A stretch of DNA of 64,000 nucleotides from assembly GCA_943355005.1 (NCBI GenBank), contig CALRDV010000001.1, forward strand, positions 15,410-79,409, in the 5' to 3' direction. The notes under the pieces were generated by a model that searched no databases, had not been told where the DNA came from, and saw only the letters and a list, made by a program, of their open reading frames with translations. This stretch comes from Patescibacteria group bacterium. GTDB taxonomy: Bacteria; Patescibacteriota; Microgenomatia; UBA1400; MFAQ01. The translations under genes were made by a program, and so were the position numbers. How positions within the stretch are numbered: position 1 is the first letter of the stretch; each line of letters opens with the position of its first letter. Positions 11,448 to 55,988 of this stretch are shown one piece after another.

Positions 11448-12845
11448 CTAAATACTCTCCAAGAACTCCAACATTTTTCTCTCCAGAACTTCAGCTCGCT
11501 TTTTATTCTTGCCAAAAATGATGTAAGACAAATATCCATCATGGAGCAGATTGGAAGAACAAATTACCAGACCTTCTCTTGTCTTTCTCGAGAACAATAT
11601 TGGCTCCATTAGCTTATGTAGTTTTTTGAAAGTCGTATTCTTCTTATTCGGCAAGGTATGCATGTTCTCACAAAGAACATACGACTTCTTAGTAAAATCT
11701 CTTCCGGCCAGCTCAATCGCCGCGTTATACATATGCGTTCCGCCTGTTACACGGACATTGGACTCATTTACAAATATCTCTCCATTTTTTCCGGCAATGT
11801 AATCAATATCAAAATATCCCCGGTAACCATCTGCCGAATACTGTTCGCCGATTAAATACCCAATATCTGTAATTCTTGAAGCTACTCTCTTTGGTAGAGT
11901 TTCTTCTCCTATCTCTATTCCGGCAAAAACTCCCTGCCTGTCTACTCTCATTCCACAGTAATACAAGAATTTTACTTCGCCATTTTTCTTAATCATGAAC
12001 TCGGAGTTTGGAAAGCCACCTCCGATTCTTGGATTCGGCTGAACCAGTGACTCAACCACAATCGGAAATTTTTCCCAATATGCATCTCTGCGTAATATCT
12101 CAATTATTTTTTTCTCGCACTCGGCAAACTTTTTTGGCAGCTCGCCCTTTCTGAATATTAGAACTCCTGCTCCTGAATGCCCTTTGTTTGTCTTGATTAC
12201 CACTCCACCTTCCTTGATATATTTATTGGCAGCTATGCCGGCAGTATCGATAATTCCGGAACTGATGACTCCGTTTGGCATTTTCATATCAGACCTCATT
12301 GCTCCATTTATCTGAGTTAGTTGTCTGATCCCCGACTTACTCCCGTAAAAATTTACCGTCCAAGCATCGGACTCTTCCGGCGCCAAAGGTGTCCGCACCT
12401 CCACTCCCTTATCTCTAAGTGTCTTGATTAGGTACAAGAATTCCGGCGAGGTTGAATAGGAAGTAATCGAAAGTCTTTTGTATTTTTTCTTCATCCCCAC
12501 CAGTTTCGCCATAATATCCTCATCTTCCAAAATATCTTCACATAGTTTTCCGGTGTGGTTCTTGGTCACAAAGATTTCCAAGTCTCGGACTTCACAGAGC
12601 TTCTTGAAATATTCCACGAAGAGGGGATCGATGGGTTTGGGGGCAATGAAAGTAAATTCAAACTCTTCCGCCATGGAGAACAAATCTTTGTCGGTCAGAT
12701 TAGCATTCTCATCTATCTCCCATTTTTGCAGTTTCTTGTCTCCGTAAGCTTCGATAAAAGGCCACACATCCTCCGAACAGTTAAATATTCGGATTACTCT
12801 TTCTCTCTTCTTTCCTCCAGGCTTATCAGTTTTTATGTTTTTCAT
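11448..12845 (-). CDS. ATP-grasp superfamily ligase with ~190-aa N-terminal Rossmann-like pre-ATP-grasp region
   Basis: C-terminal half: GGVVIKTNKGHSGAGV (ATP-binding Lys), ...GYFDIDYI...VNESNVRVTGGTH (Mg-binding E/N). Confidence 0.6.
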   Translation of the reverse strand: MKNIKTDKPGGKKRERVIRIFNCSEDVWPFIEAYGDKKLQKWEIDENANLTDKDLFSMAEEFEFTFIAPKPIDPLFVEYFKKLCEVRDLEIFVTKNHTGKLCEDILEDEDIMAKLVGMKKKYKRLSITSYSTSPEFLYLIKTLRDKGVEVRTPLAPEESDAWTVNFYGSKSGIRQLTQINGAMRSDMKMPNGVISSGIIDTAGIAANKYIKEGGVVIKTNKGHSGAGVLIFRKGELPKKFAECEKKIIEILRRDAYWEKFPIVVESLVQPNPRIGGGFPNSEFMIKKNGEVKFLYYCGMRVDRQGVFAGIEIGEETLPKRVASRITDIGYLIGEQYSADGYRGYFDIDYIAGKNGEIFVNESNVRVTGGTHMYNAAIELAGRDFTKKSYVLCENMHTLPNKKNTTFKKLHKLMEPILFSRKTREGLVICSSNLLHDGYLSYIIFGKNKKRAEVLERKMLEFLESI

Positions 12846-12853
12846 TTTATCTT

Positions 12854-12887
12854 GTCATTCCCGACCTGATCGGGAATCTATATAAAT
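12854..12887 (+). repeat. Hairpin repeat GTCATTCCCGACCTGATCGGGAATC + TATATAAAT
   Basis: Identical core to the 1992 copy. Confidence 0.9.
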
Positions 12888-12984: not shown

Positions 12985-13239
12985 CTAAATCATAGCTATG
13001 AGATTGAGTACGACGAGGAATGCGAGGAAAAACCCCGCTCCACCTTTTGCTTCCGGATCTGCGGGAAGAAGTAGAATCACTACGGCAACGACTATCGCCG
13101 CAGTATATCCCATTCCCAGCGGAAGTAACCAGCACATGGCAATAAGTACACCGTAGACTGTTACTCCTGTTTTCCCTCCAATCGCCGCAGCCGCCCCGAA
13201 TATCACTAAAAGTAATATCACTACGATAGTCAAGTCCAT
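12985..13239 (-). CDS. small hydrophobic membrane protein (84 aa)
   Basis: Almost entirely hydrophobic, 2-3 TM. Preferred over the overlapping 12935-13261 frame. Confidence 0.5.
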   Translation of the reverse strand: MDLTIVVILLLVIFGAAAAIGGKTGVTVYGVLIAMCWLLPLGMGYTAAIVVAVVILLLPADPEAKGGAGFFLAFLVVLNLIAMI

Positions 13240-13271: not shown

Positions 13272-13904
13272 CTAACGATATGAGTATGAGTGAATGGTCG
13301 TGAACACTGGATTAGTTACCAGTTGCAGATCAGGATTGGCCAGCAAATTGGTCTCAAAGGAATAAAGTGTCAAACCATACTCAGCCGCTTTGATCTTTGC
13401 CTCTTTTGCGAACGCTTGAAAAACCTCCTCAGAAGTGAAAGTGCTCTCGCAGAAATCTTGGTCAATTGAGGCAATTCCAAGCTCGGCAAGAGAGCTACAT
13501 TTATAAGCGACCAGATCTCCTTTGACGGGAACGAGAAGAACACTTCTGTACACACCAGACACCGCAACGTTCATCCTCGCCACCGTGGTAATGGTGATAG
13601 ATACACCGTCTTCACTTCTGGATACAATCTCGCCTATACGCACAGAATACCCATCTCCATCGTAAGTTGTACCGATGCCGAAGGAGTACTTGTAGGCTTC
13701 TCCACCGACAGTGAAGATACTAATGGATTCTGTATTGTAGTAAGAACTGTCCAGAGGCCAGACAACCTCGCTCTGTACGTGCTGGAATGTTCTTGTCTGA
13801 GGAACTATATTTGCCGAAATTAGTAAATAAAGTGCAAGTATAAGTCCCAGCACAATCACTAAAAAGAATGTGCTTAGTAAAGCATTCTGTTTCTTAGTCA
13901 TCAT
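13272..13904 (-). CDS. hypothetical signal-anchored protein (210 aa)
   Basis: N-terminal TM LLSTFFLVIVLGLILALYLLI, then a soluble domain. Confidence 0.55.
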   Translation of the reverse strand: MMTKKQNALLSTFFLVIVLGLILALYLLISANIVPQTRTFQHVQSEVVWPLDSSYYNTESISIFTVGGEAYKYSFGIGTTYDGDGYSVRIGEIVSRSEDGVSITITTVARMNVAVSGVYRSVLLVPVKGDLVAYKCSSLAELGIASIDQDFCESTFTSEEVFQAFAKEAKIKAAEYGLTLYSFETNLLANPDLQLVTNPVFTTIHSYSYR

Positions 13905-13923: not shown

Positions 13924-14355
13924 TTATTTTGTATTTCTGATCACAATGGTGAAATCACTTTTGCTATCAACGCTAAACCACCAAGTGTTTTCACAACTGG
14001 TAGCCAATATATCTGCAGGTACCTCTTCAAGGAATTCGGCTTCAATATTGTCTCCCAAAGCAATTCCAACATAGTATTCCCCAGCAGACTGAGTTTCTTC
14101 TCTGCTGGAACGCTCAGGTATGAAGCCTGAAATAGGCGGTGTCACAGAAAAGTTATCAAGCGAGTAGTACACAAGCTTGAAATCTCCAGGATTTTGCTCC
14201 GGAAAACAAGGCAAACTATCGGACTCCGACGGCTCACTCGTTTCAGTGAGGGTGATTGACTCTCTTCTGTCTTGCCATCGCTGAAGAAACATTCCAGCAA
14301 GCATGGAAAACGTGATAACCAGCAACAAACCAAAAATACGATCAGATTTAGACAT
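13924..14355 (-). CDS. hypothetical signal-anchored protein (143 aa)
   Basis: N-terminal TM IFGLLLVITFSMLAGMFL, then an acidic domain. Confidence 0.55.
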   Translation of the reverse strand: MSKSDRIFGLLLVITFSMLAGMFLQRWQDRRESITLTETSEPSESDSLPCFPEQNPGDFKLVYYSLDNFSVTPPISGFIPERSSREETQSAGEYYVGIALGDNIEAEFLEEVPADILATSCENTWWFSVDSKSDFTIVIRNTK

Positions 14356-14430
14356 TTTATCTCCTCTTGAATTTGATGTGAACGTACTAAAAACTTAGGA
14401 GTATTATCCTATAGCTAATCAATGTTTGCT

Positions 14431-14483
14431 GGACAAATGGTGGACAGTTTTAGGACAGAACTTGGGCTCATCGACCACCATTT
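14431..14483. promoter_or_regulatory. Candidate operator: three direct repeats GGACA(A/G) at 11-bp spacing (14431, 14442, 14453) plus inverted repeat AAATGGTGG/CCACCATTT (14435-14443 / 14475-14483)
   Basis: In the divergent intergenic region between the membrane-protein unit and the wHTH-containing gene at 14516. Helical phasing is typical of OmpR/PhoB-family binding sites. Confidence 0.45.
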
Positions 14484-14515
14484 CCTCCACTCTTCGGACG
14501 TGCTAACATCCATAT

Positions 14516-15493
14516 ATGGATTTAGAACAGCACCCTCTTTATCAGGAATTTGTCTTGGCACTAGAGAATAGCTACAAGAAGAACAGCAATCTCCTAATTG
14601 TTACCGTGCCAGGAATAGGTACCTCCCACTTTATTAAAAAGTTCATTGAAGGCGATACTTCAGGAAAATTTCAGCATATCAAAGACGACTCTTCCGAACT
14701 TAAAGAATTTAACATTCTCGATCTCAATTTTGAGAAAAATCATGAAGCATTTCAGTTGGCTACCCAATATTTCAAAAAAGCAAAGCTCTCACAAAAATTT
14801 GCCTTAGTTGTAAACACCCCCTCTATTTTAAAAACCGATTCTTACCTTCAATCTAATCTGGCTAATCATATTTACAACACCTATTACTTTAAAACATTAG
14901 GTAAAAATATTATTAAAGTCATATCAAAATTGACAGGTATGAATCTAAGTTTAGACCAGGAGGCTAAAATCTACTCGTACTCAGGTGGACTAAGTCACCT
15001 TACCAAGAGTCTTATTATTAACTCCGATTTGTTGAATAAGTCGGTCGCTGAACTTATCGACGAACCTGTTATTATTAACCCTCTTCTTCCGACTATTAGG
15101 GTAATTTCTCAGTGCAACACAGAGGTCCTAAACAAACTTGAAATCACCCAAAACAGTATTTTTATAAGCGAGATTCTTAAAACATATTTTTCCCTTCACC
15201 CTATCAACTTGCCACCACAAATTGTAGTAAACAAAGATCTATCTTTTACTGAGGATGGAATTCCATCAGAACATAAGTTGATTAAAATTGAAAAACAAAT
15301 AATCGAGATGGCATCTAAAGATGATGGTGTAATTCTTAAGGAGAAAATTGCTGATCTAAAATGGGGTGATGGTAGTTATGATGATTTTTCAGATCAAGCA
15401 ATAGGTAAAACCATGCAAAGACTCGGTAGGAAACTTAAAAAGCATCAGCTAATTATCTTGCCAAAAGTTGGCTATAAGATTGTAAAAATATGA
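14516..15493 (+). CDS. HprK-like pseudo-P-loop domain protein with C-terminal OmpR/PhoB-type winged-helix DNA-binding domain
   Basis: N-terminal LLIVTVPGIGTSHFIKKFIEG aligns to the HprK Walker A (vLitGeSGvGKSEtAleLikrG) but Lys is replaced by Thr. C-terminal ...WGDGSYDDFSDQAIGKTMQRLGRKLKK..ILPKVGYKIV matches Trans_reg_C. Confidence 0.5.
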   Translation: MDLEQHPLYQEFVLALENSYKKNSNLLIVTVPGIGTSHFIKKFIEGDTSGKFQHIKDDSSELKEFNILDLNFEKNHEAFQLATQYFKKAKLSQKFALVVNTPSILKTDSYLQSNLANHIYNTYYFKTLGKNIIKVISKLTGMNLSLDQEAKIYSYSGGLSHLTKSLIINSDLLNKSVAELIDEPVIINPLLPTIRVISQCNTEVLNKLEITQNSIFISEILKTYFSLHPINLPPQIVVNKDLSFTEDGIPSEHKLIKIEKQIIEMASKDDGVILKEKIADLKWGDGSYDDFSDQAIGKTMQRLGRKLKKHQLIILPKVGYKIVKI

Positions 15494-16542
15494 GCCCCGG
15501 CGCTGAACCTCAGTTCCAATTGGTAAAGAGTGGTCTTGGTGAAGGTTTTATTCATCCGGATACAGTTCTCGGAGAAAAATCCATTCAAATGCTTGATTAT
15601 GGTGAGATAGCCAAAGGAATTAATTTTCAGTTGACACAATATCCTGACGGTGACAATCTTGTATGGATAGCCAGAATGTACGAAGGAGAGGATGAGCTAA
15701 AAAATCAGCTTGGAAAAATTGGAAGCAACATTGAAAAACAATCCCTCACTGAAATTCAAAATGAAAGATTGGTTTACTGTCTTTCCGAGCTGAACCTACC
15801 ATTATTCTTGGCAGTACATCTTGCTTTAAATCGCCCAAATATCGATGTTAGAAAATTCTCCAATCCAAACAAAACAGATTTTATTATTGTCACTGGGGAT
15901 TCGAGGTCCGGAAAATCAACTCTCGTGTCTGCTATGTCTCTCAAGTTTCCTGACAAAGTAGAGGGTTATTCCTTGGAATTTTTTACTTCAAATTCTGGAT
16001 TAACATATTCGAATTATTTCAAATCAGAAGGACTTAATGAAGATTCTGAGCCGGCCGAAATTTTATCAGCTGTAAGCCGTTTTAGGTCCATGACTAAAGA
16101 GGAAAGGAGTTCATACAACTCTCAAGACGAAGCTGTCGAAAACGCCAATCTCTCTCAAATATTAGATGGTCTACTCGAAAAATGTTTGCGAGGAGATTCA
16201 AAGTTAATTCTAATTGAAAGTCCCGGAGCCAGAGACGATACCACAGTACAAATAACTCACCTCATTAGAGAATCCCTCGAAGTCGAGCTTCGAATTTTTC
16301 AAGCGAAACCAACAGTAGATTCTTTATTATTGTCGACCCAAGGTGACACTTTTGAGATTTTGACTGACGAAAATGGTCAGGTTTCTCCTCGCCCTTGTTT
16401 GTGGTTACAAACTGAAGGACCCGGCCTGGATATATACAATTTGGATGATGTTACTAATTTGATTCATGAGTACAACGATAAGGTTCAGATCGAGGCTAAA
16501 AAGCTCAGAGAGAGTATCGTAAATAAGCTTCAAAATCCCTAG
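15490..16542 (+). CDS. P-loop NTPase/kinase, HprK-like Walker A (GDSRSGKST)
   Basis: FIIVTGDSRSGKSTLVSAM. 4-bp ATGA overlap with the upstream gene (translationally coupled pair). Confidence 0.5.
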   Translation: MSPGAEPQFQLVKSGLGEGFIHPDTVLGEKSIQMLDYGEIAKGINFQLTQYPDGDNLVWIARMYEGEDELKNQLGKIGSNIEKQSLTEIQNERLVYCLSELNLPLFLAVHLALNRPNIDVRKFSNPNKTDFIIVTGDSRSGKSTLVSAMSLKFPDKVEGYSLEFFTSNSGLTYSNYFKSEGLNEDSEPAEILSAVSRFRSMTKEERSSYNSQDEAVENANLSQILDGLLEKCLRGDSKLILIESPGARDDTTVQITHLIRESLEVELRIFQAKPTVDSLLLSTQGDTFEILTDENGQVSPRPCLWLQTEGPGLDIYNLDDVTNLIHEYNDKVQIEAKKLRESIVNKLQNP

Positions 16543-16695: not shown

Positions 16696-16729
16696 GTCAT
16701 TCCCGACCTGATCGGGAATCTATAAAAAT
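16696..16729 (+). repeat. Hairpin repeat GTCATTCCCGACCTGATCGGGAATC + TATAAAAAT, ~60 bp upstream of rnj
   Basis: Identical core. Confidence 0.9.
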
Positions 16730-19064: not shown

Positions 19065-19340
19065 TTTTCTGGATTCCGGGTCAAGCCCGGAATGACAATT
19101 AGAATTTGTTTGTTCAAAATATTACCCGTCATGCCGGACCTGATCCGGCATCCAGTAGTTTAAGTATTCAATACGAACTTACGTTTTCTGGATTCCGGGT
19201 CAAGCCCGGTATGACAATTAGAATTTGTTTGTTCAAAATATTACCCGTCATGCCGGACCTGATCCGGCATCCAGTAGGTTAAGTATTCAATACTAACTTA
19301 CGTTTTCTGGATTCCGGGTCAAGCCCGGAATGACAATGAG
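19065..19340. mobile_element. MITE-like composite element, 119-bp unit tandemly repeated 2.3 times
   Basis: Each unit holds CTGGATTCCGGGTCAAGCCCGGAATGAC ... GTCATGCCGGACCTGATCCGGCATCCAG, i.e. 28-bp imperfect terminal inverted repeats that are themselves members of the hairpin family. Units are ~97% identical (period 19065/19184/19303). Confidence 0.8.
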
Positions 19341-55439: not shown

Positions 55440-55988
55440 ATGAGCCGCATTGGACGCAAACCGCTACATCTACCAACTTCCGTAACTTTCGAGAAAACGG
55501 AAACCACTTTGAAGTTCACTGGACCTAAGGGTACTTTGGAATCAGTTCTTCCTAAAGGAATTGAGATTGAAGTCAAAGACAATGTCATCAGCTTTACCCG
55601 AACCAGCGACGTTCCCTCTGTTCGAGCTCTTCATGGTCTCGCTCGACGCTTGGCACAGAACGCCATTACCGGTGTCACTGAAGGCTTTACCAAAGATTTA
55701 CAGCTTGTAGGTACCGGTTATCGCGTGGCTCCACATGCCGACGGTCTTTCACTTTCGGTTGGCTATTCTCACCCCGTCATCTTCAAAAAAGTTCCCGGAG
55801 TAACCATTACCACTGAAGGTCAAGATAAAATCAAAATCACAGGTATAGACAAACAGCTCGTCGGCCAAGTTTCCGCCAACATCCGCGCCGTCAGAAAACC
55901 TGAACCTTACAAAGGCAAAGGTATCCGCTATTCAGACGAAGTCATCCTTAAGAAACAAGGTAAGACTGCTACTAAGACTGCCGCCTAA
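55440..55988 (+). CDS. rplF: 50S ribosomal protein L6
   Basis: MSRIGRKPLHLPTSVTFEK... Confidence 0.95.
   Translation: MSRIGRKPLHLPTSVTFEKTETTLKFTGPKGTLESVLPKGIEIEVKDNVISFTRTSDVPSVRALHGLARRLAQNAITGVTEGFTKDLQLVGTGYRVAPHADGLSLSVGYSHPVIFKKVPGVTITTEGQDKIKITGIDKQLVGQVSANIRAVRKPEPYKGKGIRYSDEVILKKQGKTATKTAA

Follow-up and report, generated by a model that had tools for sequence, protein, structure and literature searches.

The locus and its two divergent transcription units

We analyzed a 64,000-nt stretch of DNA from a Patescibacteria group bacterium (assembly GCA_943355005.1, contig CALRDV010000001.1, positions 15,410 to 79,409, forward strand), here called the window, and all coordinates are positions within it. 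Two adjacent rightward genes, A and B, diverge from three leftward genes, and the intergenic region between the two groups carries an array of three GGACA(A/G) boxes and an AT-rich core element (Table 1). We propose that these parts make up a transcriptional control cassette specific to a lineage of ultra-small bacteria, the Microgenomates of the candidate phyla radiation (CPR), in which the protein from gene A would bind the boxes. Other loci, labeled L001, L012 and so on, are those that hold orthologs of gene A or matches to the composite promoter motif described below.

The start codon of gene B overlaps the stop codon of gene A as ATGA. The start codon of gene A is called differently by two databases, the NCBI call (312 aa, P0001) lacking the first 13 codons of the ENA call (325 aa). 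We favor the start at position 14516 because the N termini of orthologs are conserved and a conserved extended −10 motif lies 6 nt upstream. On the opposite strand, divergent gene 1 is preceded by the Shine–Dalgarno sequence AGAGGAGA, divergent gene 2 follows its upstream gene after a gap of 19 nt, and the 84-aa product of divergent gene 3 has no Pfam match. All three minus-strand open reading frames encode a strongly hydrophobic N-terminal segment, which bears out a description of them, in an earlier note made from the DNA sequence, as a divergent operon of three membrane proteins. The same note had pointed out three GGACA(A/G) direct repeats exactly 11 bp apart and a 9-bp inverted repeat, and both are present, the inverted repeat being perfect.

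Table 1. Coordinates of the genes, protein domains and promoter-region features of the A–B locus
Feature	Position	Strand	Description
Gene A	14516..15493	+	325 aa; from the list of open reading frames
Gene B	15490..16542	+	350 aa; from the list of open reading frames
GGACA(A/G) array	14431..14458	+	GGACAA 14431-14436, GGACAG 14442-14447, GGACAG 14453-14458
Core element ATTATCCTATA	14403..14413		family consensus ATTATCYTATA; partly palindromic, AT-rich; exact match unique in the window
Fourth box GGACG	14496..14500	+	8 nt upstream of the -10 hexamer that precedes gene A; 43 bp downstream of box 3, about 4 helical turns
Extended -10 TGcTAACAT	14501..14509	+	ends 6 nt before the gene A ATG; no Shine-Dalgarno sequence
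Inverted repeat AAATGGTGG / CCACCATTT	14435-14443 and 14475-14483		perfect, 9-bp arms
Protein A, residues 1-130			AAA+-like alpha/beta core; degenerate P-loop PGIGTSHF at residues 32-39 (nt 14609-14632)
Protein A, residues 131-227			helical lid-like domain
Protein A, residues ~234-325	~15215-15490		OmpR/PhoB-type winged helix; contains QRLGRKLKK...VGYKIVKI
Protein B, N-terminal ~115 aa			conserved LPxLLAVHLAxN motif
Protein B, Walker A	15895-15918		GDSRSGKS (GDSRSGKST)
Protein B, Walker B/G3-like			LILIESPG; ESPG at nt 16216-16227
Divergent gene 1	13924..14355	-	143 aa; N-terminal membrane anchor and small Cys-containing extracytoplasmic part
Divergent gene 2	13272..13904	-	210 aa; N-terminal membrane anchor, hydrophobicity 2.91 at residues 12-30
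Divergent gene 3	12985..13239	-	84 aa; hydrophobic, multi-transmembrane-like; N-terminal hydrophobic 19-mer score 2.86

Protein A combines a degenerate AAA+-like module with a winged helix

A search of 5.8 billion proteins returned 30 relatives of protein A, with lengths of about 300–330 aa and identities of 31–81% (ranges that leave aside an identical NCBI copy whose start codon is called later), and a named Woesebacteria protein is among them. Searched alone, the window's protein A matched no Pfam or NCBIfam family. Across its aligned relatives, Trans_reg_C (PF00486) was matched by 20 of 29 at E ≤ 0.1 (best E 1.1e-7), and a precomputed PF00486 match was present on 9 of 30; UniRef names one ortholog an 'OmpR/PhoB-type domain-containing protein'. 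The family profile, when compared to the PDB, matched the DNA-binding domains of SaeR, CssR, ArlR, DrrD and ToxR (best E 2e-4).

We obtained an AlphaFold (AF2) model of protein A from the family alignment, with a mean predicted local distance difference test score (pLDDT) of 90.9 and a predicted template modeling score (pTM) of 0.73. Its C-terminal 90 or so residues (pLDDT 80–93) form three strands (236–238, 243–246 and 249–254), three helices (257–268, 275–283 and 293–306) and a wing hairpin (310–315/319–324), and so follow the order of an N-terminal antiparallel β-sheet, three helices and a C-terminal hairpin. The profile matches and the modeled topology both support an OmpR/PhoB-type winged helix at the C terminus, as had been proposed. 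In the family alignment, recognition-helix residues S292, D293, A295 and R302 are invariant, while Q294 and K298 are nearly so. The sole subfamily with a changed recognition helix (L012, SDWAINQT) has changed boxes as well (TAACAA).

Protein A had no Response_reg match, and none was among the families listed for its relatives; the same holds for BTAD. No response regulator and no HprK appeared among the 50 Foldseek hits listed for the A model, all of which are AAA+/STAND proteins. Compared to the PDB, these hits include replication factor C (RFC) subunits, RuvB, CED-4/Apaf-1, ORC/Cdc6, NSF, MuB and TnsC (probability ~1.0, best E 4e-6), and the secondary-structure order of the model fits an AAA+ fold.

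The nucleotide-binding motifs of this module are degenerate throughout the family. The Walker A motif reads PGxGx[ST]x[FY], with T, V, A, I, G or M at the Lys position in 29/29 sequences, so that the missing Lys noticed earlier in the window's protein is a property of the whole family. The Walker B motif reads ILDL/NILDLxF instead of hhhhDE, where D69 is conserved and the next catalytic Glu is absent; N100 (a sensor-1-like Asn) and two lid glycines, the GG motif G157–G158, are likewise conserved. As Walker A has lost its Lys and Walker B its Glu, the AAA+ module should not be capable of canonical ATP hydrolysis. On the strength of family sequences and model, protein A is a predicted AAA+-fold pseudo-ATPase fused to an OmpR/PhoB-type winged helix.

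Protein B is a predicted P-loop NTPase

Protein B had no match above threshold to a Pfam or NCBIfam model at the family level, the matches being to generic P-loop families only. An exhaustive search of 1.84 billion representative sequences found 49 relatives, nearly all with lengths of 270–380 aa, compared to 2 proteins in a word-indexed homolog search with B alone and 4 with a 26-sequence profile. One of the relatives (P0059, 785 aa) carries an N-terminal extension of about 500 aa that has no Pfam match and, on inspection, is unlike protein A.

The P-loop, which the earlier note had called intact, is the most constant part of the family. Across 26 loci, the only invariant residues are K142 (the Walker A Lys) and G246 of the hhhh(D/E)xPG motif, and in a 42-sequence alignment K142 is the sole invariant residue, with S143 nearly invariant. 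Profiles of B compared to the PDB had their best matches to uridine kinase, dephospho-CoA kinase, adenylate kinase and PezT, with the GTPase Der also listed, and these matches span only strand 1, the P-loop, helix 1 and strand 2 (about 40–50 residues). A few members weakly match MMR_HSR1, Dynamin_N or Der, and the hhhhDxPG motif resembles a GTPase G3 motif; no conserved column for a G4 NKxD motif is visible in alignments A2 and A4. We infer that B is a P-loop NTPase of the kinase–GTPase type, apparently more kinase-like than GTPase-like. Paralogy between A and B was considered and rejected, as hhalign shows no relation between them beyond the P-loop.

The gene pair is conserved across Woesebacteria and Shapirobacteria

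We collected 26 loci from one genome per species by a pattern scan with conserved A peptides, a scan that may miss more divergent relatives, and raised the set to 33 with loci fetched by exact protein identity. The 26 loci are labeled Woesebacteria, Shapirobacteria, Microgenomates or Patescibacteria, plus some metagenome-assembled genomes labeled Gammaproteobacteria. The A–B cassette was found only in one CPR/Microgenomates group.

A homolog of B lies immediately downstream of A in 32/33 loci, so the co-occurrence of the two genes raised in the earlier note holds across genomes. The A stop codon and the B start codon overlap (ATGA or TAATG) or stand 1–2 nt apart in most loci, and nearly all loci keep them within 2–4 nt, an arrangement suggestive of translational coupling. 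The genes that flank the pair vary between lineages. There seem to be one or two copies per genome, and the identities are graded from ~26 to 81% across Woesebacteria and Shapirobacteria, which together suggest vertical inheritance. We found no relatives on plasmids, phages or viral contigs, and PADLOC gave only marginal P-loop matches to defense systems; readings of the pair as a mobile element or a defense system were rejected on these grounds. No description of this family was found in the literature searched.

A composite element of fixed geometry precedes gene A

Within the window, the three-box pattern occurs once, and it appeared in 0/100 dinucleotide shuffles. As a look-elsewhere control, we counted any 5-mer present three times at 10–12 bp spacing; the window has 2 such triples, compared to a mean of 0.23 in Markov simulations, and 2 triples were reached in 4/100 simulations. 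These window-only statistics make the GGACA repeat just moderately unusual, and the decisive support comes from its conservation at orthologous loci. The other triple in the window is TAAGA, three times at 12 bp (55949–55977); it falls in a Lys/Thr-rich open reading frame that stops near 55987, and it probably reflects coding sequence or chance.

The 11-bp spacing of GGACA boxes recurs upstream of the orthologous genes in about 20 Woesebacteria and Shapirobacteria loci, from distantly related genomes. They form part of a composite element upstream of A orthologs, composed of the core ATTATCYTATA, a 17-nt spacer and two to four GGACA(A/G/T) boxes at 11-bp spacing. The core is found upstream of A in 19/27 loci, and in 17/19 of these the first detected GGACA box starts exactly 28 nt downstream, leaving a 17-nt spacer, core and boxes being detected independently. 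The earlier note had read the phased repeats as an operator for the winged-helix protein and would have given this up had orthologous loci lacked them; they are clearly conserved there, which supports such a role.

We scanned metagenomes for the composite motif and obtained 19 hits, 10 of them directly before an A gene. The others include three contigs of one locus where the motif is 2.3 kb from A, three contigs of another locus with no A nearby, two contigs that end too soon after the motif to judge, one clear chance match in a high-GC organism, and L048, which has no A nearby and is a possible chance match. In the 64-kb window, an nhmmer profile and a position weight matrix found no further copies beyond the one described.

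L001, L014 and L025 each have a second copy of the composite element near A, 1–2.5 kb from the A-associated copy. At L017, the element lies upstream of a three-gene operon that ends in A–B, and at L018 it lies downstream of B in reverse orientation. The coordinates of these copies are L001:2355-2410, L014:2892, L025:1914, L017:2096 and L018:5911 (minus strand). The second copies stand before other gene pairs, as at L001, with a 117-aa Cys-rich protein that has a C-terminal anchor and a 223-aa/311-aa pair. Their presence hints at a small regulon.

The 9-bp inverted repeat has no evident counterpart, by eye, at the closest orthologous locus L001 and is possibly due to chance. A different arrangement is seen in one subfamily (L024, L029 and L033), where an inverted copy (e.g. 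TCGGACAgtttTGTCCGA) comes after the last direct box, about 30–60 nt upstream of the A genes, forming a palindromic site beside the extended −10 promoter. Rfam yielded no known RNA element for the intergenic region (E ≤ 10) or for the window as a whole, and a scan of 8 related loci returned a tRNA only.

The boxes keep a regular spacing to two candidate promoters

A TGnTAnnnT motif ends 5–12 nt (mostly 5–6) before the A start codon in 23/23 loci displayed, with no Shine–Dalgarno sequence. An extended −10 so close to the start codon, with no Shine–Dalgarno sequence, predicts a leaderless A–B transcript, and sequence suggests the same for gene A in the window. The promoter-proximal arrangement of the window, with a box next to the extended −10, is also present in L016, L022 and L027, as GGACATGnTAnnnT. 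Between the last box and the extended −10 of A, the distances cluster at 8, 19–20, 27–30, 40–41 and 51–53 nt, which form an 11-bp lattice. A Rayleigh test at period 11 gave a P-value of 1.7e-5, or 5e-4 after removing close relatives, though the loci are phylogenetically non-independent and these P-values are indicative only. The phasing of the boxes with A's extended −10 argues for autoregulation.

The core element carries −10-like hexamers on both strands. When the minus strand is read, box 1 becomes TTGTCC at 17 bp from TATAGG, a −35-like position for a leftward promoter, and the core element is the probable −10 region of that promoter. With the core 17 bp away, box 1 would occupy the −35 position, as at PhoB- or SARP-dependent promoters, and the fixed length of the spacer argues for a rigid arrangement of RNA polymerase and regulator at the leftward promoter.

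At most orthologous loci, the product of the leftward gene starts with a signal peptide or membrane anchor, and a Thr/Pro-rich linker often comes next. A Cys-containing extracytoplasmic domain is common to eight of these products, while the remaining ones, including the 143-aa protein of the window, are not detectably related. In the Shapirobacteria loci L023–L027, L033 and L035/L049, the sequence left of the core (...CCAATTAAGTTAAGGTTATTATCTTATAAT), together with the next 100 nt or so, is conserved and contains short hairpins; this stretch, 30–130 nt left of the core, has no Rfam match and may be the 5′ leader of the divergent gene. An anti-Shine–Dalgarno hairpin in the leftward 5′ untranslated region was considered and rejected, as the fold was no better than that of shuffled sequence (z = +1.2).

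A proposed control mechanism and its alternatives

We consider it fairly probable that these parts form one regulatory cassette, in which A binds the repeats and regulates both its own gene and the divergent envelope gene or genes, while B supplies an NTP-dependent input. In this proposal, A would be a transcription factor without a receiver domain, whose winged helix would bind head-to-tail to GGACA(A) boxes that are one helical turn (11 bp) apart. Its inactive AAA+ module would support oligomerization along the array and would have a regulatory role, receiving a signal from B. The box array would sit between two divergent promoters, A's extended −10 and the leftward promoter, and the latter would drive genes for membrane-anchored or secreted proteins. 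B, translationally coupled to A, would give an NTP-dependent signal by binding A, by phosphorylating A or by making a ligand for A.

The proposal is built from the predicted domain folds, the family-wide loss of the catalytic Lys, the conservation of the gene pair and the conservation and geometry of the cis-element. From these, we infer where transcription starts, with which sign it is regulated and that A and B may interact. As for the boxes themselves, A is most likely the bound protein, judging from the 11-bp arrays beside its gene, the invariant or near-invariant recognition helix together with a conserved box, and the co-variation of both in L012.

A more specific version is possible, and we put it forward tentatively: A and B may be a CPR-specific 'two-component-like' pair, where B replaces the histidine kinase and the dead AAA+ module replaces the receiver. 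B would then switch the oligomerization of A on the box array, by phosphorylation, nucleotide hand-over or complex formation, and thereby control cell-surface proteins in Microgenomates.

Several observations weigh against the proposed cassette. The winged helix was assigned via family profiles and the model, and the window's protein A itself gives no Trans_reg_C match. The AAA+ assignment comes from one AlphaFold model and Foldseek, with modest TM-scores of 0.33–0.39, and sequence profiles show almost no AAA signal in the A family. For B, an AlphaFold model from four sequences has a pLDDT of 44 and an unusable fold; its kinase-like character lies in about 40–50 aligned residues at the P-loop, and its hhhhDxPG motif is similar to the G3 motif of GTPases as well. 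The composite element is missing directly upstream of some A genes (L018, L019 and L021), and one A paralog (L021) has no B. At the leftward promoter, the proposed −10 (TATAGG/TATAAG) is without the usually essential final T, which, together with the −10-like hexamers on both strands, makes the assignment of this promoter and its start site uncertain. Finally, the GGACA boxes could be bound by a factor other than A.

The orphan paralog (L021:3935-4936) comes from a genome in which a complete pair is present elsewhere (L015). It lacks both a downstream B and an upstream GGACA box or core, and it adjoins ruvA/ruvB-like genes.

Binding by another factor is the first alternative to be weighed. The boxes and core could be a real, conserved promoter or operator that is recognized by another protein, or box 1 could be merely a −35 element, with the adjacency of A reflecting coincidental synteny. 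Box 1 does resemble a −35 on the minus strand (TTGTCC, or TTGTCA in L013, L024 and L033), 17 bp from a −10-like element. A single −35, however, does not account for arrays of two to four boxes at exactly 11 bp, and coincidental synteny is difficult to reconcile with an association between boxes and A that persists across very different genomic contexts. Direct repeats at one helical turn are also a typical type of site for the OmpR/PhoB family (PMC10936776), and the variant recognition helix in L012 is accompanied by variant boxes. We consequently regard this alternative as unlikely.

The order of the genes also recalls a type II toxin–antitoxin module similar to PezAT or omega–epsilon–zeta, where B would be a zeta-type kinase toxin and A an autoregulating antitoxin–repressor. 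Such modules share with A–B a DNA-binding protein encoded first and a kinase-like protein second, a 4-nt overlap, and operator repeats in their own promoter, and over the P-loop and the next strand the B profile has weak matches to PezT (E 4.5e-4 and 1.6e-3) and to zeta toxin (E 0.0038 and 0.08). Yet Zeta_toxin is not among the Pfam families listed for B relatives, and the pair lacks PADLOC, plasmid, phage or viral-contig relatives. Its low copy number and graded identities suggest vertical inheritance, the element has extra copies at other promoters and also drives, by our reading, an envelope gene that is conserved on the divergent side, and A, with 325 aa and three domains, is unlike known antitoxins. 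A toxin–antitoxin function is therefore improbable.

An iteron-type replication origin, chromosomal or on an integrated element, has still less in its favor, with A as an Orc1/Cdc6- or DnaA-like initiator and B as a loader-like NTPase. The order of AAA+ core, lid and winged helix does match Orc1/Cdc6, ORC/Cdc6 is among the Foldseek hits, and direct repeats plus an AT-rich element beside an initiator gene are a classic iteron layout. On the other hand, the Walker A Lys is absent family-wide, the winged helix is of the OmpR/PhoB transcription-factor type, and there is no GC-skew inflection at the locus. Several loci have two copies of the element within 1–2.5 kb, the AT-rich core is just 11–15 bp long, the boxes are phased with a −10 promoter element, and plasmid, phage or viral relatives are missing. 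We give this reading very little credence.

Least credible of all, the interpretation of A as an HprK-like pseudokinase–winged helix and B as an HprK/P-like kinase, in a variant of the HprK/HPr-type carbon-control system, has in its favor a superficial likeness of B's GDSRSGKST to the HprK P-loop GxSGxGKS and a non-significant hhalign alignment of A's degenerate loop to B's P-loop (probability 0.7%). Neither protein matches Hpr_kinase_N or Hpr_kinase_C at E ≤ 1, the top families listed for the relatives (29 of A, 26 of B) do not include Hpr_kinase, the fold of A is matched by AAA+ proteins, and B's best PDB matches are nucleoside and nucleotide kinases, PezT and Der, with no HprK among the 60 matches listed per search. 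The earlier note's HprK-like labels for the N-terminal part of A and for B were accordingly dropped.

Relation to known regulators

OmpR/PhoB-type domains typically bind head-to-tail on direct repeats that are one helical turn apart, and the pho-box consensus is CTGTCAT. Similar to the response regulators that act at pho-box promoters, A ends in a Trans_reg_C winged helix and is predicted to bind direct repeats 11 bp apart, of which the one nearest the promoter takes the −35 position; the minus-strand box TTGTCC shares TGTC with CTGTCAT. Unlike these regulators, A has neither a receiver domain nor a partner histidine kinase; its input module would be a degenerate AAA+ fold and its adjacent partner is a P-loop NTPase.

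The large SARPs and STAND regulators (AfsR, and also MalT and GutR) similarly join an OmpR-type DNA-binding domain and an AAA+/STAND module in one polypeptide. At SARP sites the repeats are spaced 11 or 22 bp and overlap with the −35, and in AfsR the NTPase module regulates the DNA-binding domain, with the kinase AfsK encoded nearby (PMC10936776). The likeness of A to large SARPs extends to direct repeats at 11 bp that overlap the −35. The domain order of A is nevertheless reversed relative to AfsR-type SARPs, with the NTPase-like module at the N terminus and the winged helix at the C terminus, and A, at just 325 aa, lacks BTAD, TPR or another sensor domain. Its module has no Walker A Lys, whereas the AfsR NOD hydrolyzes ATP, and its partner B is a P-loop protein rather than a Hanks-type kinase.

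Two further groups share the architecture of A in part. Orc1/Cdc6, DnaA and the PF01637-type archaeal ATPases (e.g. PAB2304, PDB 2qen) have an AAA+ core, a helical lid and a C-terminal winged helix or helix-turn-helix, bind arrays of repeated boxes, and are among the Foldseek hits of A. They are, however, active ATPases with other winged-helix or helix-turn-helix types and act mainly in replication, while the site in A is degenerate and its wing is of the OmpR/PhoB type. The clamp-loader δ′ subunit (HolB) is a degenerate P-loop AAA+ fold that serves as the structural or regulatory partner of an active NTPase, and clamp-loader subunits are the top Foldseek hits of A. In contrast to A, δ′ has no DNA-sequence-specific winged helix, and B has no AAA+ relationship to A that is detectable by hhalign.

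B shares with P-loop kinases (uridine kinase, CoaE, adenylate kinase and zeta/PezT) a strand 1, a GxSGxGKS loop and a helix 1, a second strand that ends in Asp ('LDxFS') and a later hhhh(D/E)xPG motif. The likeness extends over only about 40–50 residues, and B differs from these kinases by its unique 115-aa N-terminal domain and by a DxPG motif that is typical of GTPases as well. The components of the cassette are familiar, and it is their wiring and lineage that are new.

CPR/Patescibacteria have very small genomes with few recognizable regulators, and to our knowledge almost nothing is known on how they control gene expression. The locus would offer a complete unit, with a lineage-specific factor that has a dead AAA+ input, a coupled NTPase, a defined operator and two promoter architectures. 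Its presumed targets, membrane-anchored or secreted proteins, are candidates for host or cell-surface interaction. If the proposal is true, it would be among the first defined regulons in Microgenomates and a new way to wire an OmpR-type DNA-binding domain to a nucleotide-dependent signal.

Neighboring gene and flanking repeats

Beyond the divergent genes, positions 11448–12845 (minus strand) encode a 465-aa ATP-grasp-like enzyme with weak matches to BesA, LdmS and PGM1-type amino-acid ligases. This gene also adjoins the module in the closest relative (L001:60-1442).

A 23-nt palindrome, TCATTCC(C/G)G(A/G)C(C/T)TGA(T/C)C(G/C)GGAAT (8-bp stem and 5-nt loop), is present in 17 copies in the window, compared to 0.01 expected. 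The copies are located at positions 1993, 11416, 12855, 16697, 18734, 19073–19333 (5 copies), 23046, 30052, 35644, 39867, 53932, 62251 and 62908. It looks like an intergenic repeat of the repetitive extragenic palindromic (REP) or terminator type. The clustered copies at 19.07–19.33 kb give rise to spurious 'FRVKPGMT' open reading frames, while those at 12855–12877 and 16697–16719 flank the whole module, from the divergent operon through A–B.

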